A stretch of 64,000 nucleotides of DNA from Tubiluchus corallicola (lineage: Eukaryota; Animalia; Priapulida), in assembly GCA_030141605.1 (NCBI GenBank), contig JAQGDQ010000400.1:124001-188000 (forward strand), read 5' to 3'. Made by a program: the position numbers and the translations under genes. The notes under the pieces were generated by a model. The model was not told the origin of the DNA and ran no database searches. It saw nothing but the letters and a program-made list of their open reading frames with translations. Shown here piece after piece: positions 3,160 through 56,565 of the stretch (its first letter is position 1; every line of letters starts with the position of its first letter).

Positions 3160-3664
3160 CAGGGATGAGAATTTTCTGCGGATACGCGGAATTCCGAGTT
3201 TTTGCCATTTTTGTAAATCGCGTAAATTCGTTGAGAAAGTTTGTACGAACCCTGTACATAATTTCACAAGCTGACTGCTAGTTGGCAGGCCGTCACTTTG
3301 TTTACATCACGTATATCAGTGTAACCACGTGTATATCTCTATGTATAAAAATATAGAATCAATTGTGCAGAGTTATTTGAGTCAATTGCAGACAGTTTTT
3401 ATATACTTTTCCATAGGAGCGGCCAGTACTTAGGCGTTTTTGAGACAATTAGGTATCATGTATCCTTGATAGTTGGATATTTTGAATTATGCATGAAACA
3501 AGGTAACTGATACTTTAAGTTCACTTAGAGGCTCTCTATGGTCACAAAATTGCAATTTGTTGCTGGCTCCAAGGGGGCTTTGCATCTCAACCCCGTTAGG
3601 GGCCTAAGGACCCAAAACCCCGGCCTGTTTCAGAGTTTTTTGCAATTTGTCATTCTCATCCCTG
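3160..3664 (+). mobile_element. hAT-like MITE, family B
   Basis: TIR cagggatgagaat/attctcatccctg; flanks ataata/ataatc; inverted copy at 7131-7648. Confidence 0.85.
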
Positions 3665-4220
3665 ATAATCACATCACACAGAGTCAGTAGTCCATTACAT
3701 ATGCATTAGGCAAACCAAATAGGGTTCATCACAGGGCAATGAGTACCAGAGCTTTAGACGAATCAGTTGCTTAAAAAAGGAGGAAGCTGTAATAGCTCGC
3801 TGTTGCTCTAAAGATCTCGTTCACACAACTTCAGTATCAATGGTAAATGGCGACTGTAGTTCCACAAAACCAAAATTCATAAAACTTGCATATGATTTTC
3901 ATTGTTGGAAAAGTGACTATTTGGCCTGGCAACCAGTCAAATAATCAAAGTGCGATTCTGATGCATGAACTTAATATGAAATGTTTTTCACTGTTTCTTA
4001 AATAATAACATGACCAGCTCTTCAACTATATGGTAACAGCAGGTTGACTATGCTAAGTGCCCTTACATGGTGTGACGGACTGAAGTGTGTGACGTAAAAG
4101 ATAATAGCAAGGTGTTACAGATAATGAAGTTTTTTATCCAAAAATGCTGTAAACTGTAGATGAATCTACGTTCCAGTCATGCTGCCAACATGATGAGTGG
4201 CAGAAAAGTAACGGCCGATT

Positions 4221-5388
4221 TGCAAGTTACCAATTCTTGTTACAAGTATGATTAAAAGTCAGAGGTGAAGAACTTTGACCAATGCAAGTTACCAATTCTT
4301 GTTACAAGTATGATTAAAAGTCAGAGGTGAAGAACTTTGACCAATGCAAGTTACCAATTCTTGTTACAAGTATGATTAAAAGTCAGAGGTGAAGAACTTT
4401 GACAATGCAAGTTACCAATTCTTGTTACAAGTATGATTAAAAGTCAGAGGTGAAGAACTTTGACAATGCAAGTTACCAATTCTTGTTACAAGCATGATTA
4501 AAAGTCAGAGGTGAAGAACTTTGATAATGCAAGTTACCAATTCTTGTTACAAGTATGATTAAAAGTCAGAGGTGAAGAACTTTGACCAATGCAAGTTACC
4601 AATTCTTGTTACAAGTATGATTAAAAGTCAGAGGTGAAGAACTTTGACAATGCAAGTTACCAATTCTTGTTACAAGTATGATTAAAAGTCAGAGGTGAAG
4701 AACTTTGACAATGCAAGTTACCAATTCTTGTTACAAGTATGATTAAAAGTCAGAGGTGAAGAACTTTGACCAATGCAAGTTACCAATTCTTGTTACAAGT
4801 ATGATTAAAAGTCAGAGGTGAAGAACTTTGACAATGCAAGTTACCAATTCTTGTTACAAGTATGATTAAAAGTCAGAGGTGAAGAACTTTGACAATGCAA
4901 GTTACCAATTCTTGTTACAAGTATGATTAAAAGTCAGAGGTGAAGAACTTTGACCAATGCAAGTTACCAATTCTTGTTACAAGTATGATTAAAAGTCAGA
5001 GGTGAAGAACTTTGACCAATGCAAGTTACCAATTCTTGTTACAAGTATGATTAAAAGTCAGAGGTGAAGAACTTTGACAATGCAAGTTACCAATTCTTGT
5101 TACAAGTATGATTAAAAGTCAGAGGTGAAGAACTTTGACAATGCAAGTTACCAATTCTTGTTACAAGTATGATTAAAAGTCAGAGGTGAAGAACTTTGAC
5201 CAATGCAAGTTACCAATTCTTGTTACAAGTATGATTAAAAGTCAGAGGTGAAGAACTTTGAACAGTGCAAGTTACCAATTCTTGTTACAAGTATAATTAA
5301 AAGTCAGAGGTGAAGAACTTTGACCAGTGCAAGTTACCAATTCTTGTTACAAGTATGATTAAAAGTCAGAGGTGAAGAACTTTGACCA
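4221..5388. repeat. Minisatellite, 61-62 bp unit, about 19 copies
   Basis: tgcaagttaccaattcttgttacaagtatgattaaaagtcagaggtgaagaactttgac(c)aa repeated head to tail, nearly identical. Confidence 0.97.
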
Positions 5389-5582: not shown

Positions 5583-9190
<3,608 letters not shown>

Positions 9191-9609: not shown

Positions 9610-10717
9610 ATGAAAAGCGATTTTACTGTTATAGTATTAGGCATTTTGGTGTTTTATTCATGCTTTCTCACTCGTACTTCTTGCAATCAACAGCGAGATT
9701 ATGAAAACGTCGGTACAGTTAAGGTGGAACCAACGGTGGGTCAGCCTTGGCCAAAACCACAAATATACCAAGTACAACAAACGTATATGAACATAGACAA
9801 ACAAAATTTTGAATTTACAGTAAGTCAGAAAACATGTGATATACTGGATGCTGCAATACAACGTTATTACAAAACTATTTTTTATCCAGAAGATGGCAGG
9901 TATTGATATTTATATATCATCGTATTTAAAATGTCTTGAAAATAAAAGGTGTCTGTGAGTGTGCTTAAAATTTGTTACATTCATGATGAGTAACCTTGCT
10001 TCTATCCCTAATCCAGTGCTTACAACATAAGCTTAACTTTGAGATTCTGTGGCACTGTAATTATTTTCTGCCTTTTTATTTGTTATACGCACCAAGTTCT
10101 GCATCACATTTCAATCTCACAGCCGTACTGTGGTTTTTGTTAAGGAGTTCCTTATTGTTACTTGTGAAAAACTGTCTGTGAACATTAACACCTTGTTGAA
10201 AGTGTTGGTGCACACAGCTTTGGTGATAGTCCTGCAAGGAATGAAGAACTATGTTATGTGAAAGTTCTTTTCCTTTAGCAGGCCAGCCAGCTTCGACAGT
10301 TAATCATCGACCGACATTTAATTAGTCAAAATCACGTCAGGGTGAGCTGTCACACATTGTGTTAGTTTGTGAAGTGATGACCTAAGCATTTGTAAGCAAA
10401 CTATTTCTCAGCTTCCTCACTGATTTTTGTTCCACTGTTCTAACAAATTTAATTTTCACAGAGTTAAAAGAAGTGTTCTGAGATTTGAACCTGAAGAAAG
10501 AAAGCCAAGTCTTGTTGTTGACAGCGATTATCATGGAATCCTACAGTCTCTTAACGTTTTCCTTACTAATGACTGTGAAGATCTGCCCGCTATGAATATG
10601 GATGAGCAGTGTAGGTTTTTTAAGTTTGATTTTATTTTAAAAAATGAGTTGAAGTTAGGTAAGTTTGATAGTAAGAACAGATATCCACAACTTATGTGAC
10701 TGGGAGAGGGAGAGGAA

Positions 10718-10812
<95 letters not shown>

Positions 10813-13800
10813 AGAGAGAGAGAGAGAGAGAGAGAGATTGAGAAGGGAGAGAAAGAGAGAGAGGGGGAGAGCAAGAGAGATAGAGGGGAGAGGGCAAGAG
10901 AGAGAGAGGAGAGAAAGAGAGAGAGGGGGAGAAAGAGAGAGCGGGAGGGGGAGAGAGAGAGGGGGGGGGGAAGAATAAGCAGACAAGCCATCAACCTGTT
11001 TTCTCTTTTTATTGGTGTTGTTTCTCCAGTTGTTGCATTTATAAATAAACACGGGCCTATAAAAGGTTATAGATTATGTAATACAAATGGCAGAGTTTCA
11101 AAGTACGAATATAGTAGGTGGTGGTCTAATAAGAAAATTCAAAAACTCTCGTGAAGCATTAAATTTATTTTTGAAAATTGCTTCCTTGTATATACTCATT
11201 ATAAAAGGTCTCTTCTAGTAATAAAGAAACATTAATGCGGTGTGTCTATAATACTAAACATTTAGATACTTTTCAATTGAATTTTCCCGAAATTATATTT
11301 TCTTCCAGATGAAATAAAGATTGACAATGCAGACTATCCTGGAAAGGGAATCTTGACAAGTGACAGTATCTGGGGGATTTTGCGAGGTTTAGAAACATTC
11401 AGTCAAATTATATACGAGTCTACAGAAGGTTTAGTAAGTTCAGTTTTTTCCTGCCATAGTCAGTATTTTTAATAGATGAGAGACAATTTAATTGTTGGGA
11501 AAGCATTTCAAGATAGTTTAAGTTAGTAAGTCTGAAATCAACTTTAAATTGAACTTGTAATGTGAGTCCAGTAGCTTAAAAGTCAATGAGTATTGAATTT
11601 GCCAACATGATTATAGCTGGAGAGGTGTTTTTGTTCTGTTAAATGAATATATGATTTTATACTCATAGCTTACAATAATTCTATGCTTGGTGTGTTTTTG
11701 CATTTTTTTGAAATACTGTTTTTGAGTGAGGGAATAATTAATTCTCGTGATATCATATGCTTAGAGACCATAGTCGAGTAGTAGCTGAGCTTGTGGATGG
11801 GTGTTTGATAGGGGTGAGCATCGAACGTTCGAATCGAATTCGAACGCTCGAATTCGATTCGAATGAGTTTTTTCATTTCGAACTCTATTCAAATCCAAAA
11901 CTATAGATTCGAATAATTCAACACTTCAATCACATATGTTCTTTATCACTAAAACGATTGAAACATCATGCAATTAGCATAATTTACCTGTGATTTCTGC
12001 GCACAATTTTAAAGAAATTACTAGTCGTTTTATTGCAGAACAAAATCTAGTGATATGCATGATCTTTGTAAGACTAATTTTTACTGGTGGTTTGAAAACT
12101 TGTTCGAAAATCTTTCAATCTCAATTCGAATTCGGTTCGAATTCGAAACACTGAAGTTCGGTTCGATTCGAATTCGCTGTCTGGTAGAGAATGCTCACCC
12201 CTAGTGTTTGAACACCTGCAAAAACTGCTTCTAGTCAGCTTCATAATCTGCCATATTGCCCTGGTTGTCTACCTCATTTGTGGAGGATTCACAGGCCAAG
12301 ACAACACTGCTGGTTCAGTGTCTCAGAAAATTTTCCGTGGTAGGTTACAGTCCCTAGTCTTGTCTTAGCCATCTACAGCGTCGATTTTGGCTTACGGTGC
12401 CCTATTTATTGATAACGCTGCGCTGATCTATTACAATCAGTTTGGAGCATTGCATTCAATGTTCTAATTGACTAATTAAGATTTACGTTTGGTTTAGGAT
12501 CAGACGTATAAGATTTACGCTTGGTTTAGGATCAGACTTATAAGATTTACGCTTGGTTTAGGATCAGACTGATAAGATTTACGCTTGGTTTAGGATCAGA
12601 CTTATAAGATTTACGCTTGGTTTAGGATCAGACTTATAAGATTTACGCTTGGTTTAGGATCAGACTTATAAGATTTACGCTTGGTTTAGGATCAGACTTA
12701 TAAGATTTACGCTTGGTTTAGGATCAGACTTATAAGATTTACGCTTGGTTTAGGATCAGACTTATAAGATTTACGCTTGGTTTAGGATCAGACTTATAAG
12801 ATTTACGCTTGGTTTAGGATCAGACTGATAAGATTTACGCTTGGTTTAGGATCAGACTTATAAGATTTACGCTTGGTTTAGGATCAGACTTATAAGATTT
12901 ACGCTTGGTTTAGGATCAGACTTATAAGATTTACGCTTGGTTTAGGATCAGACTTATAAGATTTACGCTTGGTTTAGGATCAGACTTATAAGATTTACGC
13001 TTGGTTTAGGATCAGACTTATAAGATTTACGCTTGGTTTAGGATCAGACTTATAAGATTTACGCTTGGTTTAGGATCAGACTTATAAGATTTACGCTTGG
13101 TTTAGGATCAGACTTATAAGATTTACGCTTGGTTTAGGATCAGACTTATAAGATTTACGCTTGGTTTAGGATCAGACTTATAAGATTTACGCTTGGTTTA
13201 GGATCAGACTTATAAGATTTACGCTTGGTTTAGGATCAGACTTATAAGATTTACGCTTGGTTTAGGATCAGACTTATAAGATTTACGCTTGGTTTAGGAT
13301 CAGACTTATAAGATTTACGCTTGGTTTAGGATCAGACTTATAAGATTTACGCTTGGTTTAGGATCAGACTTATAATATTTACGCTTGGTTTAGGATCAGA
13401 CTTATAAGATTTACGCTTGGTTTAGGATCAGACTTATAAGATTTACGCTTGGTTTAGGATCAGACTTATAAGATTTACGCTTGGTTTAGGATCAGACTTA
13501 TAAGATTTACGCTTGGTTTAGGATCAGACTTATAAGATTTACGCTTGGTTTAGGATCAGACTTATAAGATTTACGCTTGGTTTAGGATCAGACTTATAAG
13601 ATTTACGCTTGGTTTAGATCAGACTTATAAGATTTACGCTTGGTTTAGGATCAGACTTATAAGATTTACGCTTGGTTTAGGATCAGACTTATAAGATTTA
13701 CGCTTGGTTTAGGATCAGACTTATAAGATTTATTAAGAGACTTATAAGATTTACGCTTGGTTTAGGATCAGACTTATAAGATTTATGCTTGGTTTAGGAG

Positions 13801-16800
13801 CAGACTTATAAGATTTACGCTTGGTTTAGGATCAGACTTATAAGATTTACGCTTGGTTTAGGATCAGACTTATAAAATTTACGTTTGGTTTAGGAGCAGA
13901 CATAAGATTTACGTTTGGTTTAGGAGCAGACTTATAAATTTTACGTTTGGTTTAGGAGCAGACTTACAAGATTTACGTTTGGTTTAGGAGCAGACTTATA
14001 AATTTTACGTTTGGTTTAGGAGCAGACTTATAAATTTTACGTTTGGTTTAGGAGCTGACTTGTAAGATTTACATTTATTTTGTTATGCAGCTGAGGATTA
14101 ACAGCACTTTTATTGATGATCATCCAAGGTTTTCTCACAGAGGTATCCTGCTGGATACATCCAGGCACTTTGTAAACAAGGCTGTTTTGTTAAAGAATTT
14201 GGTGAGTTTATTGTAGCAGTCAATTTTTATGTTATGCATTAGGTGTACACATATACTTAAGTTAATAAGTTATTATAACTATTTTATTTATTTGTAGGAG
14301 TGTGTAATTATTTCATTTATTTACAGTAACATGAAATAATTCAACGTTACATAAATTTGGTTTACAAGCACAAGATCTAGTACGAATAGTTTGTTTTTCC
14401 TCTGCGCAAATTTACTTTTACTGGTTAATCCAAATGTTATTATGTTGTGTATGTTTGTGAACTTTGTGTTTCATGTTTATGTTTAAAAAAAATTTTACAA
14501 CAGTTTGTGGCATTTTGTTTTTAAAGGCGATTAGGGATAGCTCGATTGATTATATATTGCTTTACTTATGTGGTATTGTGAACTTGTAAAGTTTAAGTCA
14601 CTATTTTACTCTATGTTTGTCTTATATACTTGTTGCTACTATTCTTGCAGCGAGAGAGAGAGAGAGAGAGTGGGGAGGGGGAGAAAGAGAGAGGGATAGG
14701 TCAATTGATTATATATTACTTTTCTTATGTGGTATTGTGAACTTGTAAAGTTTAAGTCATTATTTTACTCTATATTTGTAATATATACTTGCCACTATTC
14801 TTGTAACCTTGTTATTCAGTAAATTCATATTTGTACAAAAAAATCTATTGCTTAAAGACATTAGTTTAAAAAAAAATAAAAAACAATATCATTCTTATAT
14901 TTTATGGAAGAATATGTTAATTTTGCTGGTCCAATGAATTATCACATCTCTACTAAACTCCTTTCTATTTCATTTCTTTTCTCTTTTTCTCTGTCTTTGT
15001 CTATTATTTTATCTTAACTATTCTCTGTTTTTCTATAATTCTTTCTCTTGTTTATTAAGCAGTTTTTTTCTCCACTTTTCATGGTGGCCTTACAAGCTTT
15101 GCTTCTTGACCACCATGCAGCATATATTTCCTGTTGATAAACTATTGTGCCATTAGTAACTATATTAATATAGTTGTAGTTCTTTTACAATCATTGTAAT
15201 TACAATTGATTTGATGTATAACAGTTACAATGTGATAATGTAATTATGCTGAAGTGGACAATAAATTGCGTCAATTACGTCAAAAAAATTACATCAATTA
15301 ACTTTTTAAGGCAAAGTGAAAAAAATCTTTTTTTACAGCAAGTTCTTATTAATTTTACACAAATGCTTGATTTTTTTTCAGGATACAATGGCATACAATA
15401 AGCTTAATGTTTTTCATTGGCATATTGTTGATGATCATTCATTTCCTTACGAAAGTTATTTGTTTCCAGATTTAAGTGCAAAGGTGAGCCAGTTAAATAC
15501 TGTAAATGCTTGTTTAAAGGAAGACCGGACGATTGTTTAGACTCAATCTCATCTTAATTTACTGTCCAAAATATACATGTTCCTGCCTATAAAAGTTAAC
15601 AATTGTTCCTTATATTTGAATAATTAGCTTAGAATGTTAATTATCGTCAACCGAGCACAGCTATCGCTTACGTCAGTAACTAACCACAGTTTGTGCAATA
15701 GCAGGCATCTTCCCTTGCGCATCAAGCACTTGCATAAGTGTTACAGTACTGCTTAAATGCATGATGTCGCGAAAAATGGGCTCTATATCATATGACGTCA
15801 TGAAACTAACACAACAGTTCATGATCATGGCTATCACGGTACCACCTTCTGTTTGTCGGCCACGCGCACGTGACAAAAAAGCGCAGTTGCCAATCTTAGT
15901 AGATTCACTGAGCCGTGAGTAGCTTTGAAAGTTTAACAAAATTTGAGTATCCGAGGTAATTATTATTTAATCTAAACTTTGAATTAAAAAAAGCTATTAT
16001 AGTTTTCAGTGCTTTAGAGCATACTTTATTTTGAACTAATGTCTGCACAGTCGTCCGGTTTTGCTTTAATAATGCTAATGTACCCCATCAAATTGTAACC
16101 CTGTGTTAAATCTTGTTAATTGAAGCCATGTTTCCATAATGGGGGATGCTTTTGTTGCTGCAAAAACAATTAGTGCTTGGATTATGTAAATCAGACAGGT
16201 AATGATTTTCGTTGCTTTACTTTGTCGTTATTGTTTTATCAATCATAAATATTAATTGTTTCAGTAGTGTATGTCATGTAGGTAATTTTGCAGTTATAGT
16301 TATATAACACTTGATAGAGTTTTAGCTACAGTCAACTTCGGATATAAGGGACACCTCCAGACCAGAAAAAACCGTCCCTTATATCTGATGTCCCTTATAG
16401 CCGCAGTTGAGTCAGATCGAGGGTGCATCTAGACCTGTATTTTTCTGCACTTTTACCCATGTTTTTATGGATTATTGCTACACATTCAGTGCAAACGGTA
16501 TGTAGGAAGCTCCTTCGGTGATGCGAGATGTATGTGACCGCGGAAACCGAGCTGTTCGTAGGCTGAGTTTGCGATAAAATCAATCAATTTCACTTTGGTT
16601 CATTATATGCGAGGTAATTTACCTGGGTTTCTATTACGCGGGACCTAAAGATATCGTCTCTTATAACCAAAAGTCTCTTATATCCGAGTACGTTATATAC
16701 GAAGATTTTTATAAGGAAAAACGTTACGAAAAATTGGGACCTGTAGATCTTCTATTCCATTTTAAAACTTATGCATGTAGTATGTATACTCATACCTGCA

Positions 16801-19800
16801 TGCATTGTGCTCTGTGTATTATCGTGTATTGCGGAATTTTATTAGAAAGGGCAAACCTTACACAGCAAGCATCAACAACAACTCATTTCATGCCAGCTGA
16901 TTAAATATTATTAGTGTGTCTTCTACAGTCAGTGTGATGTAGAGAACAAGAGACAGAATTCAAATTTTCAGCTAAATCTGATATTTTAATTTTAACTTTT
17001 TTGTGCTGCGATTTTGCACAATTTACTTTGCTTTGCGATACGCCTTGTCACATTGTATATCACATTGTTCTCAAATTTGTTGACTGTAGAATCATAGCAT
17101 GCAAATATTGCAATTAGTGAATGCACCTGTACAAAGTTTCCTCGAGAGATAACTTTACTTGAAGAACATAAAAAATAAAAAGGAAATTTTTTCGATTCGA
17201 TTTTCAAGGTGATTTCTCGATGATCACTTATTAAATTTTTTGAATAATTGCTGTGTATTAGATGCATAATTGTTTATGATGGACAATTTTATACGCCTAG
17301 GGTGCATTTCAAGCATATACCCATGTATATACCCAGGAAGATGTTTTAGAAATTATTGAATATGCCAGGATGCGGGGCATCAGAGTTGTACCTGAGTTTG
17401 ATACACCAGGTGAGCTAATGACAGTTTGCTGCTTTACCAGTTAATCAGGTAACTTATAACGAATCTACACTAGGCATCTGTAATGAAATTCGACACAATT
17501 TACGCCTAGGACCAATTAAACTTAACTAATCAACCTGTTGGACTGCAATTCTTTCTGTATTCAATTTTAACTGGGTTTTCAAATCTAAGTGGTAGTCCTC
17601 CATTTTTCATACTTCCAAGTTGTTAAAGTCTTTCTTTATTATTACTATAAATTCCGTATTTATGGCTCACTTATTTTTTGCTGAGGATGGTATGGGGATA
17701 ATGCCGAAATGTACAAGTTAATATCTATGCAAGTATGCTAATGTACAATATGGACTTATTCTCTACATTCTCGTCTCTGCTAACGTTAATTTTGATTTGT
17801 TTTAGGACATACTCAGTCATGGGGACCTGGCATGCCAGGTTTACTCACTCCCTGTTATGATAAACATGGCCAGCCCGACGGTACCTATGGGCCTGTTGAT
17901 CCCACGGTAAATTCAACTTACAAATTTTTTGCCAAGTTTCTTAGCGAAGTTGTAGACGTCTTTCCAGACAAGTACGTTCACCTTGGAGGAGATGAAGTCA
18001 GCTTTAATTGCTGGTAGGTGTGCCAGATTCTAGCTTGTGATATTTATACCCTTATTGAGATTGGAAGTTGCAACTAATTCTATGCATTTTCATATACTTT
18101 TTAACTCTGTTATAGGAAGAGTAATCCAAAAATCACATCGTTTATGAAGAAAATGGGTTTTGGAAAGGATTATGCAAAATTGGAACAGTATTACATACAG
18201 AAGTAAGTATCATTTTCTAGTGAAAGTCAGTATGCATGGCAGTTTTAATGTATCTGAAATGCTAACAGATAATTATCAGTTCTTTTTGCTGTAAATGTTT
18301 CGCAGGTGCATGCTAAGTCCTCATTTAAACACTCCCCGTTTGGCAATGTTTCGTTTTAACAACACTGAACATTTGACACTTTTTTCTCACTTAACGATGC
18401 GTTTTTCTTTTTAACGATGATTTTTTCCTTGCTCACAGCCTTTTTTATTTTGTCAACAACATTTTTACCTAATTCGAAGCATTAAACTGTGCATGCTGTA
18501 TTATTGTGTTCTACAAACACCTAGTAACGTAAAACAGTAGAATTATTATTTATATGTTCACTTCCCGACAGACTGCTAGCCACTTGTATCAAACAAGATT
18601 TATTTGGCAGCAGCTGATATAAGCTTTATGCAAGAAATTTTACCTGCAACATGCTACTATGGTAGCTAGTATCTGGGCGACATCGTCTCAAAGTCCGCCT
18701 CGAGTAGGTGAATAATATACTCATAAATATGAATAAAATGCATAAAATGTTTAATTTATGTGAATTAAGTATCAGTCAATCAATCAATCAATTTATTTCA
18801 CTCCAGCAATACATATACAATACATCTACATACAATATTATCGAAAAAAAGAAACAGTATAGGTAAAAAAAATGTTGATGAAGTCAAATTAACCTAATAA
18901 AAGAGTTGCTGTATGATACCTTGAAAGCTTGGCTTGTTAAGGTGGCAGAAATGAGTGAATGAAAGAATGGTTAGGGTTAGCAGAAATGCTGGAAGGGAAA
19001 AAATAGTAAGATTAGGGATAGAAAGAAGGAAAAGAGGAGAAGAAACGAACAACCATATTGTATGTTTTACATAGAGCTATATTTAAATAGCATTATAATT
19101 GATTGGAGGCCATATATTGCGACTGCATGAGACATGGAAGCATTAAAATTGTATTATAAGTATGAATCAAAAATGGTCCTTTTCAAGTACTTTATGCAAC
19201 TATAAATAGTTTTGTGTATTTTTACTTGGGCACTTATTTTATTCCAGTTGTTGGGGGCTGTGAATTTAATAAAGCTGATTTTTGTCTCTGGAACATAGCT
19301 CAATTTTGTCACATTACTTTCTGTGGAAGTCTTGGTTCCTTTAACGACGTTTCACATAACGTCACGTTTTGCTGGAAGGTATTTGTGTCGTTAAGTGAGG
19401 ACTTACTGTACACAAATACAGATGGATGAAATGTACATGAGAACAGTGATCTCACTAGCAAGGAGAGTAATTGTATAGCTAAGTGATGTTGTTTAGTTAC
19501 AAAAGTTAAACAATGTCAATTTGGGTAGTAAATAGATCTTGTTATTTATCAGCATTATTTAAGATTTACTGATTAGCAGGAAAGCTAATTTTGGGCAGTT
19601 TAATCCACCATATTGTCTCCGGTTATTTCTCGATGAGGCAAAATTTGTATGCATCAGAACATGTCTGCCGGTTTAGTATCTCATATTAGAATATTGCGTA
19701 ACAAGTGCTCCAAGTGTTCAACCTTAGTAGGAAGCCATGGAGTGTGCTGAAGTTCATAAAAATATTTAATATGATGGTTGAGACTTTTTAATTAGACTTC

Positions 19801-20085: not shown

Positions 20086-23000
20086 GTCATTATTATTATT
20101 ATTATTATTTTTGTTATTATTATTATTATTATTATATTCTAAACTCCATTTTGTTAATTTAGTGTGCTGAATACTATGCAGACTTTGAAACATGGTTACA
20201 TAGTGTGGCAAGAAGTGGTTGATAACAAAGTAAAGGTAGGGATTATATCGTTGATAAATCAATTTTTCTATGAAGTTCATATCAGACTTTTTAATTCTAC
20301 TTTCTCTGCTGTGTTTACGATTTTAAAGCCGTTTGACAAGTGAAATGCTTGTAGATTTGTATTTCTTGATTTTTTTTCGGTTGTGCATTTCACAAATAAT
20401 TGTCAGGCAGTAATAGAGCAAGAAACGGGTGTTAGAGACATATATTAGTATTGCGTTATTTTGACTGAGAAATTTATTTAGTTTTGCATTGCTTAAATAC
20501 TGATAACACTGTTTCATACTGCAGTAAATTTTGCCACATCATTTAACTGAACTGCGGTGCAGTATTGCACAAAATCATCTTTACTCTAGCACTGTTGCTG
20601 TTCGAAATTTTACTGAAAGTGAAGAATTAGTAATATAGTGTATTAAGTTAAAACAGTAGAGAGTCTGTGGGTAGCGCATTAAAATGCTGTAGAAGTGCCT
20701 GAAGCGATACATAAACATCAAAAAACTGATGAATTGTTGTCAACTAATATTTTATTGGTTGTCACAATGCACTAACAGTTTCCTGTACAAATAGCAGAAC
20801 AGCTAATTTTGTGTGCATTTTACATCATTTATTTCAATTTGTTTGTGTAAGATATTATCTAAAGTTGCTATATTAACCCATATCAGAACAGAGTATCAGA
20901 ACACGAAATTTTGTATACATTTTACTTGATTTATTTCAATTTGTTTATATAAAATATCTAAAATTGCTATAAATAATCAACAAGCAGACACTAGGCACTT
21001 GTCACTGTCAAATGCTTGATTGCAACTCTCATATGCTATACAGTGTTTATGAAATTCTGATTGATTTTATTTGGCTTTAGTTTTTTTATTGAAAACTCAT
21101 TAATTGCAAATGAAGTAGTGGGAGCATTTAAGAATTTTTCTGCAGCCATTTTTGATTGATAAACTCCAGTCTTAATTTTTAAAATTCACGACTCACATAA
21201 TTAACAGATTATTAAGTGAAGTAAGAGTTATATAATTTCTTTCTGAACCAAATTTGTTTGCGTATTTAATGGCTTCATTACCTTATTAATGCTATTTTTG
21301 GCTACATAATTATTTGCGTGTTTAAAAAGACTGTGTCGCCTGTGTCTAGGTTAAGAGTGATACTGTTGTTGAGGTATGGAAAGGCGGCTACGAATCAGAG
21401 ATGACATATGTAACAGGTTTAGGTTTTAATACCTTACTTGCTGCTTGCTGGTATCTAGACTACATCTCATATGGCAGTGATTGGCATAAATATTACACGT
21501 GTGAGCCGTGTGCATTTAATGGTAAGGAATAGCAAGCTGGGTAGGACATTAAACGGTCAAATGAACAGTTTTTTGCTCGGCAACTGTTAGTAGATCAGAT
21601 TTACTGCTGTACTATTCTTTTTGCCTATTGCAATCATGAATCAAGGTTTGTCAACCCCGTTGCATGCAGTTTATGTTCAGTGGGTTTTGAAGATAATTCC
21701 TGAGGCAAGCATTCTTTGGTGCATGGAATGCAATGTGCTCCAAGCAATGCCAATGGCCTGTCAAAGCATACAGTAAAATGATGAATATATGAATAATATC
21801 CAAACACAATTCATTTATGGCTGCAGAAGCCCCATGGCATGCAGTTTAAGTTCTGTGTGTTCTTGAAGAGAATTCCTGGAGTAAGTTTTCTTTTTGTTGA
21901 CTACTTTAGTTGCACGGCATTTCTATAGTCAGAACCTGTAAAGGTTTTTGTGATTATTGCTTTTGAGGTTGTTTAGGCTAAACCTGGCTGCTTTTTCTTC
22001 TTGCTTTGTGCTTGAGATGTACAGCGCTGCAAAAGTGAAACTATCTATTACCTACAAGTTGTTTAGGTTGCACACGACACGGTGGTACAAGTTTGGAAGG
22101 AGCCTCACAAACTTGAGATGACTTACGTAACTTGGCTTGGCTTTAACACGCTCCTGTCATCTTGTTGGTATTTGAGTACCATAAATCCGGGAGCTGATTG
22201 GCATGATTATTATAACTGTGACCCCGAGTCTTTTATCGGTGAGCCCCTTACAACGAGCATGTGGGTTTTTGGTGGGCTGGAATGCCCTAAGGTCAACAAC
22301 ATTTAATTTAGTTAACACTAAGCATCTTTACATTTCTCTCTGCTTGTTAATAATACCTTATTTTTCATCATTTAATACTAATTTTTGGTATATTTTGTTT
22401 TTGTGTTTTGTGTTGCTAAATTGCTTTGCTGAATTCTACCTACATGTGCTGCTAAACAGAAAACTGTTCATTTGACCCACATTTTGCTTTTACACTTCAA
22501 CAACAAGCAACGAAGCTAGGCATCAACTGTCTTTTTCAGCTGTCACATTTGTTAGCTCTTGATTCGCACACTTCTTAAGCACAAAATATTGGAAATTTTA
22601 AAGTGGCGACACGAAAACAAAGCCGCATTTGCAGAACACGTATTTTTACTTGTAATTTGGGCACTACTATTACACACTCCATCTTTTCGATCTTTCTCAG
22701 GTCAAACCTGACACTATTGTGCAAGTGTGGAAAGATAAGGATCGTGATGCTGAAATGAGTTATGTCACTGGACTGGGCTTGTCCACTTTGCTTTCCAGTT
22801 GTTGGTACCTGAGTCACATAACAACTGACAAGGACTGGCCGGAGAAATATACTTGCGAACCTCTAAAGTTTAATGGTGCTGCTTTACATTATTTAGTTTT
22901 ACATCATTATCACAGGCAAATGCTTGCGTGTTTCCACTGAATTAAACGTACAGCAACCTGTTGTTCTAAGTGGATTATGTGCTAGTGGCATCTTTGCCAA

Positions 23001-26000
23001 ATTTCAATTTATAGCAAATCTTGCCACTTAAAAACACAATTGTATCTGAACACCACAATAGTTTTTGCCATTGCTGAACACCACAATAGTTTTTGCCATT
23101 GCTGAACACCACAATAGTTTTTGCCATTGCTGAACACCACAATAGTTTTTGCCTTACCTGAACACCAGAGTAGTTTTTGCCTTACAAAACTAGTTTGTTT
23201 CTATGCTTGATGCCTAGCTTCACTTTGTACAGGAGCGGACTGAAAACAGCAAGGGCCCTCGGGGGGGGGGGGGTGGGAATCTGGTGAACACGTATCGGGT
23301 CGGGGAAGATTTGTAAGCTGAAACCACAAAACATGCTGTACGAAAGTCCACAAAACTTAACGGTGTACACAGGAGTGTATATTCTGTGTACAACAATGTA
23401 CCATCTATGGCCGTAAAGGAAGTCAGAATAGAGGGAAATGATGTGGTACATCTCATTTTTTGTTGCATTCCTGCAGTGACCTGCAATTGGCATCTCTTCT
23501 AGTATATAGACTTACTGTAGACAATTAGGCCTATGAAATTTTTGGGTTTAGCTACTAATGCTCTGTACTGTAAACAATTTCAAAGTTAGCTTCGCGTCAC
23601 ATGATTATGGTGCTAGAAAGTCTTTTATTGCACTTTCCATCCTATTTCGGTCTTCTCCTTAGTTCGAAGTGATCAGTCCGCTCCTGATTATAATATTTTG
23701 ATTTTTCGTTAGTTTATATAGATATTATGTATATTTTATATATATTATTTTATATTATTATTTATATATTATATATATTTTACATAGGTTTTTGCCTGCT
23801 CATTTACACTAACTATTATTGTTATTTAGCATAAACTTGAGATAACCTTAAGGTAAACTTACGTTAAATTTACTGCTTTCACAATTTTGTCTTGATCTGA
23901 TATCGTCTGCCTTTTGTTTGCATTCGAATGTCCCAGTCTTCGTTTCACAGTACTGATTAATATCAAATTATGACTTGACAAATCTATTAAATTGTTTTAA
24001 ATTGTTATTTTTGAAGAAATATAAAATTATTGGTGTATTCTGGAGTTGTGGAGATAGGCTATCTTAGCACATTTCTGTCATTTCTGTAATGAAAATTGAC
24101 TGTTACGTATTTCTGTAGGTACTGAGAAACAAAAGCAGTTGGTAAAAGGAGGAGAAGCGTGCTTATGGGGTGAATATGTTGATGGTACCAACCTCTTATC
24201 TAGGTTATGGTAGGTATGATTTGCAAATATTGTATGAATGTAGGAAAAATATAGTATATAGCTCTCTGTACACAATTAGATATGAACAATACAGTCTTGA
24301 ACTGCTCCAAAATCTGGTTGTGCAAGACTTGTGAGCAATATTCTGTTCAAATTCTAAGTTTTGGTGCTTAGCACAGCTTCTAGTAGAATAATTGTACAAT
24401 AGTTATCACTTAACAAGATGTAATACTGTTATCACAATTTAACCATCAAGGAAGTCAGCTCTTTAGAATAATTGCAAGCACATATCTGTTACCTGTTAAC
24501 ATGAATGCTTTTTCTAGATAGACTATTAGTTGTAATTAGTGCGGCACCCGAGGTTCTAAGATCTCGATAATTAGTGGCAAAGTTCCGCACTATCTATTTT
24601 CACCGTAACGTTCAACCTTCGTTGATCTTGATTTAAAGGTCATTTAGTTGTTGAGATGCTTTCACATTGACTGTATTGACATTTTTCTACAGGCTAGTTT
24701 GTCTTGCATAATAGTTTAAAGTCGTTCGCTGGGTGTGTATAAAGTTAAATGTTTAAAAGTCGTCCTTGTAGTAGTTATCATAGTTGTTGAGATGCTTTCA
24801 CGTTGACTGTATTGACATTGTTCTACAGGCTAGTTTGTCTTGCATAATAGTTTAAAGTCGTTCACTGGGTGTGTATAAAGTTAAATGTTTAAAACTCGCC
24901 CTTGTAATAGTTATCATAGTTGCGTTCCTTGTTAGATAGAGAAAAAATTCAGCCTTAGCTGAAAAAGAAATTCAGATTGGCAGAATGAATTTGAATTTTG
25001 AAAAATAAGTTACAGTTTAGCTAGCAAGATGCCACTTGTCTTTTTTGCTATTTTTGCATTTTAAATGAGAAACTATTGTTTAAAGTTTTTAAAGTATAAT
25101 TTTTGCTTGCTCTGAGTATATCTGAGTGTCAATATAGTAGATTAAACACTGGCTGCTGTAGAATTGATCCACATTTTTTCAATTGATATTACAATGTCTA
25201 AGAGATTTAACTGTTGTTTAAGTACATTGTAACATTATGTACCAAAACAAAATTTGAAGAATGGGCTTGATACGCATAAAAAAATACTCAAACAAGAAAT
25301 ATGTGCCACTTTTGTCTCTCTGTTTTGCTAGAAATAAACTAATGTGCAATTTCAGAAGATACGTTAGAGGCTGTGGCACAAGGTTACATTGACGTATAAT
25401 CTTTTTTCTTTTGCAAAAATGGCAAGAAAAATCATAGAACGCGAAAAGTGCCACTGTTACAAAAAAGGGAGAGTAACTTGTCTGTACCAAGCAAAATCAA
25501 ATCATATGTCTTGGCGACAAATGTCATGCACAACCTTAATATTGTGGGAATACAACAAAATTAAATGTAATAAAATTGGCGTTCAACTTTGCGGTATAGA
25601 AGGCGCTATAATTAATGGTATCTTGTTAAAAGCATTCACCAACACCTCGAGGCTTTAATTAGGTTGATACTGAATTTAAGTTGTATGAGATTTACTTGAT
25701 GAAATCAATTCTCTGTTAACAGGCCACGGGCATCTGCTGTTGCAGAGCGCCTTTGGAGTGCCCAATCTGTGGATGACGTAGACGAGGCATCTCATCGACT
25801 TGAAGAGCACAGATGTCGTATGGTTAGGTACAGTTTAAATTTTATCATGGAATTAACAATTTTTTACACTTATTACATTTCACTGAGTTTCTTGCATTTA
25901 GTAAATTTCATCTTTTCGAAAGTGGAGTACAGAGTTCCCTCACTTATCGCGGGTGTTCTGTTCCAGGCCCGCCCGTGATAAGTGAATTTCTGCGAAGTAG

Positions 26001-27221
26001 GGATGCTATACTTGTTTTAGTACTTATACATTATTGTAAGTCTTTATAAACCCTCCCCACCGCAGATGAAAACTACGCACATGCGACAGTCGGATGCTAA
26101 CGTGAAATGGAAGAGCTGAGAGGGGGTAGTTGCACAAGGGGAAAGAAAATAAATTGCACGGTACCTGAGCCAATCAGCGACTGGGATACAGAGCAGCATT
26201 CTCTGGTTGGTCGCTTTCCATCAATCAACCAATCGTGTGTGGTGTACATTCTCACGCCGGCAAGTAGCATCTCAAGCGGGCGCAAGTACCACATTTCGCT
26301 TATGGTGTGTATTCATCTGCTGAATAAATACACTATTTACTGTAAATGGTAATTTTTTATGATTTATAATATTCTTTTAATGTTAGAATTAATATTTTTA
26401 ATATATTTTTATACATTTTGTGACTTTTTATGTAAATTTCGTCAAATGTATACATTACTGTACAATACGTACTACGCATGTGCAAAAATACTTTAGACGG
26501 AGTACCGCTGAAACCCGTGAAACAGCGAGTTCGCGATAAACGAACCGCGAAGTAGCGAGGGAACACTGTACTAAAATAAGGATCAGCTATTTATTTTTCC
26601 TTTTATTCACCTGCCTGTTTACACATTTCTCATTACATACATGTGTTTCTGACTGGTGACCACTAGTCAGCCATCATCCATTTACCTCTTAAATTGCATG
26701 ACCATGATACACTGCCTAGTATTTGCTGTTTCCTATCATGTTGCAGAATTTTTTAGAAGTCACATTTCGCTTGCTGCAGGGTGAGGCTTAACTGTATACA
26801 TTTTACAAATGGGGCATGATCTTTGCAAGGTGGGTGGCATCATGGTAATAATTGACATGACACGCATTGCTTTCATTAAAAAAACAACTTAAAAATAAGT
26901 CAAAGTTTGATGGACTTCATTCTAACTGGTCATCAGCCTTCCTACAGTGGTCATTTTCTTTTGTGAATGTGTTGCAATTTCATATCAGAAGTTTGATGGA
27001 TGCCCAAAAACTGAATTAAAGGACTGTCGGGATACGCTTATTCTCTACTGTAGAAGGTCAAAGTCTGCACTATCAACTATTTTACATTCTTGAAACTTTT
27101 TTTATTTTTCATCAGTACATAGCAATGTATTTGTAGTAATTTACTTTTTCGTTTCAGACGAGGCATTCCAGCAGAGCCACCAAATGGTCCAGGTTTCTGT
27201 CAGTATGAAATACAGCCTTGA
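9610..27221 (+). CDS. HEXB: Beta-hexosaminidase (GH20, HEXA/HEXB-like), 13 coding exons per isoform, about 561-562 aa
   Basis: Exons 9610-9899, 10462-10610, 11309-11433, 14091-14201, 15382-15483, 17301-17409, 17806-18013, 18116-18202, 20163-20235, [21350-21521 | 22067-22238 | 22701-22875], 24119-24209, 25723-25827, 27158-27221. All are GT-AG with compatible phases. Has a signal peptide and the motifs [43 protein letters not shown], catalytic [18 protein letters not shown] and [13 protein letters not shown]. Probably co-orthologous to both HEXA and HEXB; the symbol is nominal. Confidence 0.96.
10703..10972. repeat. (GA)n microsatellite and purine-rich tract
   Basis: Long perfect GA run decaying into GA/G-rich sequence; explains the RERE/LSLS ORFs. 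Confidence 0.97.
11809..12203. mobile_element. hAT MITE with 8-bp TSD
   Basis: TIR taggggtgagcat/atgctcacccta, perfect TSD gtgtttga on both sides, subterminal ttcgaa repeats. Confidence 0.9.
12477..14072. repeat. Minisatellite, 32 bp unit, about 50 copies, in hexosaminidase intron 3
   Basis: taagatttacgcttggtttaggatcagactta in tandem; ends about 18 nt before the exon 4 acceptor. Confidence 0.97.
15514..16069 (+). mobile_element. TTAA-flanked non-autonomous DNA transposon (family A, Kolobok-like)
   Basis: ttaa|aggaagaccggacgattgt ... acagtcgtccggttttgct|ttaa. TTAA TSD with purine-purine termini fits Kolobok rather than piggyBac (CC ends). Confidence 0.8.
16329..16742 (+). mobile_element. Tc1/mariner MITE family C, 3'-truncated
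   Basis: Collinear with 625-1039. Confidence 0.78.
18311..19408. mobile_element. Degenerate Tigger-like non-autonomous element
   Basis: Inverted ends taagtcctcatttaa / ttaagtgaggacttactg|ta, with subterminal ttaacga repeats. Confidence 0.55.
19826..20134 (+). mobile_element. 5'-truncated SINE with expanded (TTA)n tail
   Basis: Body matches 30991-31273; the (TTA)n tail at about 20017-20134 stops about 28 nt before hexosaminidase exon 9. Confidence 0.85.
21350..21521 (+). CDS. Hexosaminidase exon 10a (mutually exclusive variant, canonical type)
   Basis: tctag|...G|gtaagg, 172 nt: [58 protein letters not shown]. Confidence 0.93.
22067..22238 (+). CDS. Hexosaminidase exon 10b (mutually exclusive variant)
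   Basis: tttag|...G|gtgagc, 172 nt: [58 protein letters not shown]. Confidence 0.88.
22701..22875 (+). CDS. Hexosaminidase exon 10c (mutually exclusive variant)
   Basis: ttctcag|...G|gtgctg (weaker donor), 175 nt: [59 protein letters not shown]. Confidence 0.85.
23046..23181. repeat. 28-bp tandem repeat, about 5 copies
   Basis: ctgaacaccacaatagtttttgccattg repeated. Confidence 0.9.
23230..23686. mobile_element. MITE with 14-bp TIR (hAT-like CAG ends)
   Basis: caggagcggactga ... tcagtccgctcctg; no clear TSD. Confidence 0.7.
25930..26568 (+). mobile_element. Tigger/pogo-like MITE, family D
   Basis: ta|cagagttccctcact ... agcgagggaacactg|ta; inverted shorter copy at 46651-47060. Confidence 0.85.
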
Positions 27222-31273: not shown

Positions 31274-31806
31274 TGAAAGTACATGAAAATGTTTATTGCG
31301 TGCCTAGTGGCGCTTATCCATGATGCAGTCTACCCTTGTGCAAAATTGATATACAAAGCCTGTTTAAAAAATGTAAATGTGCTTTACAAGGATTTTATTA
31401 ACTTTAGTAATTCCCTGAAAACTTTATCTGCTATTACGACTACATGGATGTCAACATGTTTATCGATTTGGCTAAGCCTTGTTTTGTCTAATTACATCCA
31501 CTTCAGGTTTATAGCATTTGATAATGTAACTTCGGCAAAGGGCAGCTACAGTGTCTAATCTTTCAAACCTAGCACTAAAACATTTCTGTGAGCGGATGTG
31601 CGTTCAACCTTTATTGTGTCGTGCGTAATAGCTGGTTTACCAAAGTCTAGAGATCAGTGCAAAGAGTGCATTTACCTGACCTGGGGTTTCTTACTTGTCA
31701 ACAGATAAGACTAGCTACAAATATTATTGACGTATACATATTGTTTTTGTTTGTGATGTACTTTTTTTCCTTTATACCTGTTGCTACGACCTTTATTAAA
31801 TTTTTA

Positions 31807-32690
31807 TTACTCATAGCATTGCAAGAAAGTTTTTCACAAACATCCCTGAACACGAAAGAAGTTATAAGCGTTACGCACAGCATTGCATGAAAGTTCTTCA
31901 CAAACATCCCTGAATACGAAAGAAGTTATAGGCAATACTCACAGCATTGCAGGAAAGTTCTTCACAAACATCACTGAACGCGAAAGATGTTATAGGCATT
32001 ACTCACAGCATTGCAGGAAAGTTCTTCACAAACATCCCTGAACAGGAAAGAAGTTATAGGCGTTACGCACAGCATTGCAGGAAAGTTCTTCACAAACATC
32101 CCTGAATACGAAAGAAGTTATAGGCTATACTCACAGCATTGCAGGAAAGTTCTTCACAAACTCCCTGAACACGAAAGAAGTTATAGGCATTACTCACAGC
32201 ATTGCAGGAAAGTTCTTCACAAACATCCCTGAATATGAAAGAAGTTATAGGCATTACTCACAGCATTGCAGGAAAGTTTTTCACAAACATCCCTGAATAC
32301 GAAAGACGTTATAGGCATTACTCACAGCATTGCAGGAAAGTTTTTCACAAACATCCCTGAATACGAAAGAAGTTATAGGCATTACTCACAGCATTGCAGG
32401 AAAGTTCTTCACAAACATCACTGAACGCGAAAGAAGTTATAGGCATTACTCACAGCATTGCAGGAAAGTTCTTCACAAACATCCCTGAACAGGAAAGAAG
32501 TTATAGGCATTACTCACAGCATTGCAGGAAAGTTTTTCACAAACATCCCTGAACATGAAAGAAGTTATAGGCATTACTCACAGCATTGCAGGAAAGTTCT
32601 TCACAAATATCCCTGAATACGAAAGAAGTTATAGGCATTACTCACAGCATTGCAGGAAAGTTCTGCACAAACATCCCTGAACACGAAAGA
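31807..32690. repeat. Minisatellite, 64 bp unit, about 14 copies
   Basis: ttactcacagcattgcaggaaagttcttcacaaacatccctgaatacgaaagaagttataggca in tandem. Confidence 0.96.
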
Positions 32691-32694
32691 ATAT

Positions 32695-39643: not shown

Positions 39644-56565
<16,922 letters not shown>

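Follow-up and report, generated by a model that had tools for sequence, protein, structure and literature searches.

The window, a stretch of 64,000 nucleotides from the priapulid Tubiluchus corallicola, contains on its forward strand a HexA/HexB-like hexosaminidase gene of family GH20, which we modelled with 13 exons between positions 9610 and 27221. The GH20 catalytic domain (PF00728) and N-terminal domain (PF14845) both scored over the Pfam cut-off in the predicted protein, whose best whole-protein identity to homologs was 57% in a quick tree comparison. Nine constitutive coding exons (9610–9899, 10462–10610, 11309–11433, 14091–14201, 15382–15483, 17301–17409, 17806–18013, 18116–18202 and 20163–20235) carry the equivalents of R211, H294, D354 and E355 of the human beta chain, and constitutive exons 11 to 13 (24119–24209, 25723–25827 and 27158–27221, which ends in the stop codon) carry those of W489 and E491. 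These equivalents, and those of W424 and Y450 in exon 10, were established by alignment to the human chains; the equivalents of H237, D240 and W405 were read off the translation only. A tandem array with a 32-nt unit (12477–14076) occupies much of intron 3. Upstream of the hexosaminidase gene lie exons of an NCU-G1 family gene on the forward strand (224–520 and 1225–1455), whose product is also a lysosomal protein, as well as a 61-nt tandem array (4221–5386) and a long inverted pair of related sequences (3382–3665 and 7130–7412) that is possibly a mobile element. Downstream we observed a 64-nt array (31806–32691) and a forward-strand MADS-box exon (45186–45431, Pfam SRF-TF), presumably MEF2-like, at which a 67-nt tandem array begins (from 45415).

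Exon 10 is present in three tandem copies on the forward strand: 10a (21350–21521, 172 nt), 10b (22067–22238, 172 nt) and 10c (22701–22875, 175 nt). Each copy is bounded by AG and GT, begins in phase 0 and ends in phase 1, so that the three share the homology, equal phase and intact splice sites by which mutually exclusive exons are recognized. Among the eight combinations of exon 10 that we tested, the three with a single copy gave full frames of 561–562 amino acids, and a premature stop appeared when exon 10 was skipped and when two copies (three combinations) or all three were included; only single-copy splicing therefore holds the frame. The invariant WYL begins at 21449, 22166 and 22803, and is followed by DYISYG in copy a (21458–21475), STINPG in copy b (22175–22192) and SHITTD in copy c (22812–22829). 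The loop after VWK reads GGYESE, EPHKLE and DKDRDAE, respectively, and is one residue longer in copy c. The EPHK loop is not special to exon b, because it is also present in two ordinary homologs (P0012 and P0061). The donor of exon 10c (G/GTGCTG) was, by eye, the weakest-looking in the gene.

We compared the region with two sequencing runs. Contigs of the first run span introns and are DNA-like, and the second we guessed to be RNA. The second run yielded a single 301-nt contig across exon a, with ends resembling the end of exon 9 and matching the start of exon 11. Exon a is thus spliced singly, in the order 9–a–11, in a sample that differs from the window by about 6%, with the junction between a and exon 11 lying at a loose contig end. 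Nine differences from the window were listed for this contig, of which five are synonymous and none alters residues 452–457 (human beta numbering). Exons b and c fall outside its coverage, so the contig is evidence neither way for them and the splice record concerns exon a.

The protein identity of the three copies is 56–61%, with 28 of 58 columns invariant, and many of the identical residues are written with different codons (21 of 35, 23 of 33 and 19 of 32 in the three copy pairs), so that synonymous sites are saturated. In a neutral simulation with at least 0.5 substitutions per site, no more than 1 run in 10,000 retained 33 or more of the 57 residues in an open frame. Together these results show that the likeness of the copies is not due to chance, and on this pattern of codons and residues the copies are under long purifying selection. 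A careful tree of 36 exons, from invertebrate and taxon-unlabelled sources, placed copy a, on a short branch, and the pair of b and c in one group (support 94/88 and 96/80). The copies group together and not with those of other animals, which suggests that the duplication in the window was separate from theirs. A single origin of all variant exons with Ser452 was 48 log units worse, at a p-AU of 0.106, and was thus not rejected.

Alignment to the human beta chain (PDB 3lmy) showed that exon 10 spans W424, Y450, D452, L453 and Y456, and the human alpha chain reads WYLNRISYG at the same place; the numbering that the preliminary description had given is therefore correct, and the varied residues 452 and 453 fall in the pocket of human beta and not away from the active site. 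In PMC3129794, this pocket comprises 13 residues, of which D452 and L453 alone differ between alpha and beta. Four of the 13 (W424, Y450, D452 and L453) lie in exon 10. A beta chain carrying D452N, L453R and four loop changes, six changes in total and not two, cleaves the anionic substrates 4-MUGS and GM2 (PMC3129794), and PDB 5bro is an engineered modified HexB, a beta chain with N-R at 452–453. Inhibitors have been docked against Y450, D452 and Y456 (PMC6499197). The loop encoded by exon 10 is sensitive to change, as judged from the disease alleles Tyr456Ser (adult Sandhoff) and Asp459Ala (juvenile form; PMC6646740), and from insertions and substitutions at alpha 425–428, within a stretch (424–429) that runs along the subunit interface, which did not restore activity and in which reframing was not tolerated (PMC11699244).

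At residues 452–453, copy a has D-Y, copy b S-T and copy c S-H. Copies b and c retain W424, Y450 and D459, but position 452 is no longer acidic and both have lost the tyrosines at 453 and 456, the latter replaced by proline in b and threonine in c. The alpha-type pair (Asn423-Arg424 in alpha numbering) and the beta-type pair Asp452-Leu453 are each absent from all three copies, and with S-T in b and S-H in c, neither of them containing the alpha arginine, no isoform is strictly alpha-like. We then set these residues against 126 motifs drawn from 120 homologs, among the matches listed. Position 453 is tyrosine in 87 of the 126, position 452 is asparagine in 81, aspartate in 42 and serine in 3, and Tyr456 is missing in 10. 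By this comparison, copy a has the form usual among invertebrates, and b and c are new variants and not alpha mimics. The preliminary description had read the three motifs and loops correctly and had rightly placed a specificity-setting residue pair here, with the pocket Trp and Tyr kept in b and c, Asp452 exchanged for Ser and the Tyr456 equivalent lost; its observations were confirmed, and its interpretation was partly supported. Copy a is beta-like in its Asp452, but not in its Tyr453, where beta has Leu. The exons do change 452 and 453, as claimed for a swap of alpha and beta specificity residues, but neither variant brings in the alpha arginine. The loss of Tyr456 is no alpha/beta swap, because both human chains keep this tyrosine. 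The catalytic residues are shared with human HexA and HexB (PDB 3lmy, 2gjx and 5bro), and the variable exon covers the same pocket positions. The human difference is divided between two genes (PMC3129794), whereas the window has one gene with three versions of the exon; Arg453 is found in none of these, and Tyr456 is missing from two.

The same exon varies in other animals. Isoforms that match outside exon 10 were found in oyster, in the freshwater mussel Sinanodonta and in two amphioxus species, in which there are three exon versions, including N-R, in two clusters; one further homolog (P0001) has a tandem two-copy frame of exon 10. Among the matches listed, and dependent on annotation, 15 of 20 clusters screened, invertebrate or taxon-unlabelled, gave no sign of a swap, a weak negative. 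A candidate isoform pair from Lamellibrachia (P0067 and P0471) was discarded because the two proteins also differ outside the exon. In metagenomes, 8 of 79 loci hold two to five tandem copies, and in three of the eight these are near-identical. Across 14 clusters, which are partly non-independent, position 453 differed in all 19 within-cluster copy pairs, compared with 0.17 between species, a figure lowered by the choice of reference copies by motif; an independent background is the Tyr453 frequency of 87/126. Position 452 differed in 16 of the 19 pairs and position 456 in 6, Y450 and W460 were invariant, and 9 of the 19 variant copies have Ser452. One metagenome locus (L007) has copies with only 4 differences in 57 residues. 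Three of the four fall at 452, 453 and 456, and the variant reads S-H as in copy c. The repeated change at 453 and 452 is the best support for a role of the exon in specificity, a role that we still infer from sequence. Another locus (L051, 1483–3928) holds five tandem copies; one is interrupted by an in-frame stop, and three combine Ser452 with a longer loop.

The exon also varies in vertebrates. In a search with an eel protein, 19 of 120 models among the matches listed contained two exon copies; 17 of these were hexb-type, all with a D-type exon followed by an N-R exon, and two came from alpha-named or subunit-unnamed clusters. The hexb isoforms X1 and X2 of chimaera, bichir, paddlefish, teleosts and frogs, taken from RefSeq and other models, swap this same exon, with changes at 452–453. 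In all 12 fish and frog species examined, which were chosen because isoforms were listed, the isoform pairs differ in exon 10, with no mismatch outside the exon except for two in one Callorhinchus pair, and D-Y or D-I is set against N-R (10 species) or N-V (2 species). A real alpha/beta motif swap therefore does occur, between isoforms of fish and frog hexb. This undoes the earlier contrast between splicing in this animal and gene duplication in vertebrates, since fish and frogs swap D-Y for N-R within the same exon. The hexb of these fish and frogs has two copies, both with Tyr456, unlike the three copies of the window, two of which lack it. In reef-fish RNA-seq, a mutually exclusive HEXB event with 181- and 175-nt exons shifts in prolonged heat (dPSI −0.136, FDR 0.0016; PMC8933327); by length, these would correspond to the N-R and D exons. 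In fish proteins P0317, P0401 and P0517–P0521, from alpha-named or subunit-unnamed clusters, we also observed a second, strongly changed exon (DLPGPT or DLPIPT, with no Tyr456) beside NHISYG.

These isoforms bear on the origin of the alpha and beta subunits. A search of a small candidate set with the Xenopus N-R exon gave 108 matches. No amniote protein named beta was among them, and all eight amniote matches lacking a subunit name were alpha-like. A careful tree of 29 rows grouped tetrapod HEXA with the hexb N-R exons (93/96), although a topology grouped by gene was not rejected (p-AU 0.149). Under a mixture model with 68 rows, the gene-wise tree outscored the quick free tree by 15 log units, and the fish proteins named alpha lie at roughly the same distance from alpha as from beta. 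The ancestral vertebrate gene may have had both D-type and N-R-type exons, of which amniote HEXA would have kept N-R and mammalian HEXB D; fish and frog hexb, predicted still to make both, would be a natural counterpart of the engineered modified HexB. With the gene-wise grouping unrejected and fish alpha equidistant, the data suggest but do not show that the alpha/beta split arose from a splice pair.

To return to the window, the exon 10 copies are accompanied by intronic inverted repeats, all on the forward strand. Exon b is enclosed by an 18-nt perfect repeat (21555–21572 and 22460–22477), the first arm of which starts 33 nt past the donor of a, with a predicted pair probability of 1.0. Exon c is enclosed by a 15-nt perfect repeat (22512–22526 and 23207–23221; probability 0.97), followed after 8 nt by a stem with 14-nt perfect arms (23230–23243 and 23673–23686; probability 0.99). 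A tentative stem around exon a (21138–21149 and 21817–21828, 12-nt arms) crosses the b stem. It ranked fourth in an all-against-all duplex scan at −25.4 kcal/mol, near background (the next scored −24.9), and reached a probability of 0.94 only while the 3′ arm of the b stem was absent, in nested folding that cannot hold both. Jointly, the predicted stems cut the distance from a to exon 11 from 2597 to 507 nt. In shuffled sequence, an 18-nt perfect repeat was found in 0 of 1000 cases and a 15-nt one in 4 of 1000; these shuffles overstate the significance of the stems, because the window contains 29 perfect inverted repeats of at least 14 nt, 26 of which lie elsewhere. Within the gene, three of the four such repeats are the b, c and downstream stems. 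Simple steric exclusion is unlikely, as the introns between the copies (545 and 462 nt) are too long, compared with about 58 and 36 nt in metagenome loci L005 and L022. That the stems are transposon ends seems less likely, as each of the two arms tested occurs only once in the window and no convincing target-site duplication was seen by eye. The inverted repeats around b and c are likely to serve splicing control. The loop of the c stem contains a 28-nt tandem repeat (23046–23181), and the intron between a and b a direct repeat (21655–21717 and 21830–21893, 175-nt spacing) that adjoins the 3′ arm of the a stem. A metagenome locus (L046, 3331–3892) has a 14-nt perfect inverted repeat around the middle of three exon copies, comparable to that around exon b.

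This arrangement resembles exon 4 of Drosophila srp, where crossing stems around alternative exons control the choice between them (PMC4691838, PMC6071210): in the window, too, predicted intronic stems each enclose one alternative exon, and the tentative a stem crosses the b stem. The window differs in having three exons, in the serial order of the b, c and downstream stems, in the weakness of the a stem, which is near background, and in that its stems are predicted from sequence. Long-range intronic pairing in a duplicated-exon cluster is also shared with the docking-site and selector systems of Dscam exon 6, 14-3-3 zeta and Mhc. Unlike in those systems, no arm of the stems has a second strong partner: a duplex scan for a shared docking site found none, with second-best partners of four arms at −16.9 to −22.5 kcal/mol, close to the control minimum of −19.8 kcal/mol. 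A candidate selector downstream of exon a (−16.1 kcal/mol) was within background.

We propose, with a probability of about 0.62, that the three pocket-lining exon copies are mutually exclusive and give rise to three isoforms predicted to differ in the sugars they accept. The frame logic, the purifying selection, the 9–a–11 contig, the isoforms in other animals, the pattern at position 453 and the stems support this reading; the weak c donor, the sensitivity of the loop and a splice record for a alone weaken it. Stems around b and c would loop these exons out and leave a as the default, and the weaker stem around a may favour b; the scheme covers these two outcomes, and the choice of c over a and b falls outside it. 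Nonsense-mediated decay would clear transcripts with wrong exon combinations. The predicted product of copy a is a general enzyme for neutral substrates. In b and c, the loss of acidic 452 and of tyrosines 453 and 456 would open the rim of the pocket and alter the contact with the neighbouring dimer partner, and copy c, whose histidine takes the place of Arg424, would be more likely than b to accept anionic substrates at lysosomal pH.

Three other explanations were weighed against this one, and we consider each of them unlikely. Exons b and c could be rarely used or recently silenced duplicates, looped out by their stems so that only a matters. The single spliced record is of a, b and c each sit inside a strong stem, c has a weak donor, both listed differences in exon b in the DNA-like run change an amino acid, and one copy in the five-copy metagenome locus contains an in-frame stop. 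Nevertheless, the frames, splice sites and 28 invariant residues of the copies have outlasted saturated synonymous change, annotation in other animals treats variant exons as isoforms, whose use shifts in fish RNA-seq (PMC8933327), and non-consensus donors at this exon also occur in metagenome loci L014, L033 and L051. A little less probable is that the main effect of the variants is on the pairing or stability of dimers, as with subunits that function only when paired with a, and that sugar specificity stays much the same. The interface position of alpha 424–429 (PMC11699244) would fit this, as would the absence from both b and c of a tyrosine common to human alpha and beta whose change to serine is a disease allele, but the most consistent change is at pocket position 453 (19 of 19 pairs) and not at 456 (6 of 19), and the tyrosine is dispensed with in 10 of 126 homolog motifs.

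The least probable of the three is that b and c are strict alpha-equivalents with HexA-like activity on sulfated sugars and GM2. Both have indeed lost acidic 452, copy c carries a histidine in place of Arg424, a feature shared with fish proteins under the NCBI name alpha (NHISYG), and the constitutive exon 7 aligns to human alpha with a higher score than to human beta. By contrast, no copy contains the arginine, b has threonine in its place, and both b and c lose the tyrosine that human alpha retains. We favour three isoforms predicted to differ in substrate choice. For the wider reading we see about even odds: that the exon acts as a cassette for specificity, duplicated repeatedly among animals, that the HEXA/HEXB difference divides an older splice pair and that the window gene is an independent three-way version under serial RNA stems.

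The cluster probably belongs to the class of tandem mutually exclusive exons, with homologous copies, predicted to be used one per transcript, and variable residues near functional sites (PMC4494069, PMC7954323); in this case the same exon was duplicated in many animal lineages. A general process leading from splice pairs to gene duplicates has been described in PMC4494069, there without hexosaminidase. The main texts of PMC4494069 and PMC7954323 do not mention hexosaminidase, and hexb is absent from six supplement files of the latter, whose gene table may be elsewhere. In the open-licence literature, to which our search was confined and which excludes subscription journals, we found no description of a hexosaminidase exon switch. 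The raw vertebrate fact is already on record, because RefSeq models and one supplement hold the isoforms, and appears to have gone uninterpreted.

These results point to a recurrent splice switch at two residues that set the substrate choice of hexosaminidases. Its natural variants (S-T, S-H, N-R, D-H and D-L) form a directly assayable set, and the window offers a small cluster of three exons in which the candidate RNA stems are clear. Should fish and frog hexb produce an N-R isoform that cleaves anionic substrates, part of a HexA-like function could come from hexb alone. Models of Tay-Sachs and Sandhoff disease in fish and frogs would then be read differently, and the alpha/beta split would gain a testable origin.
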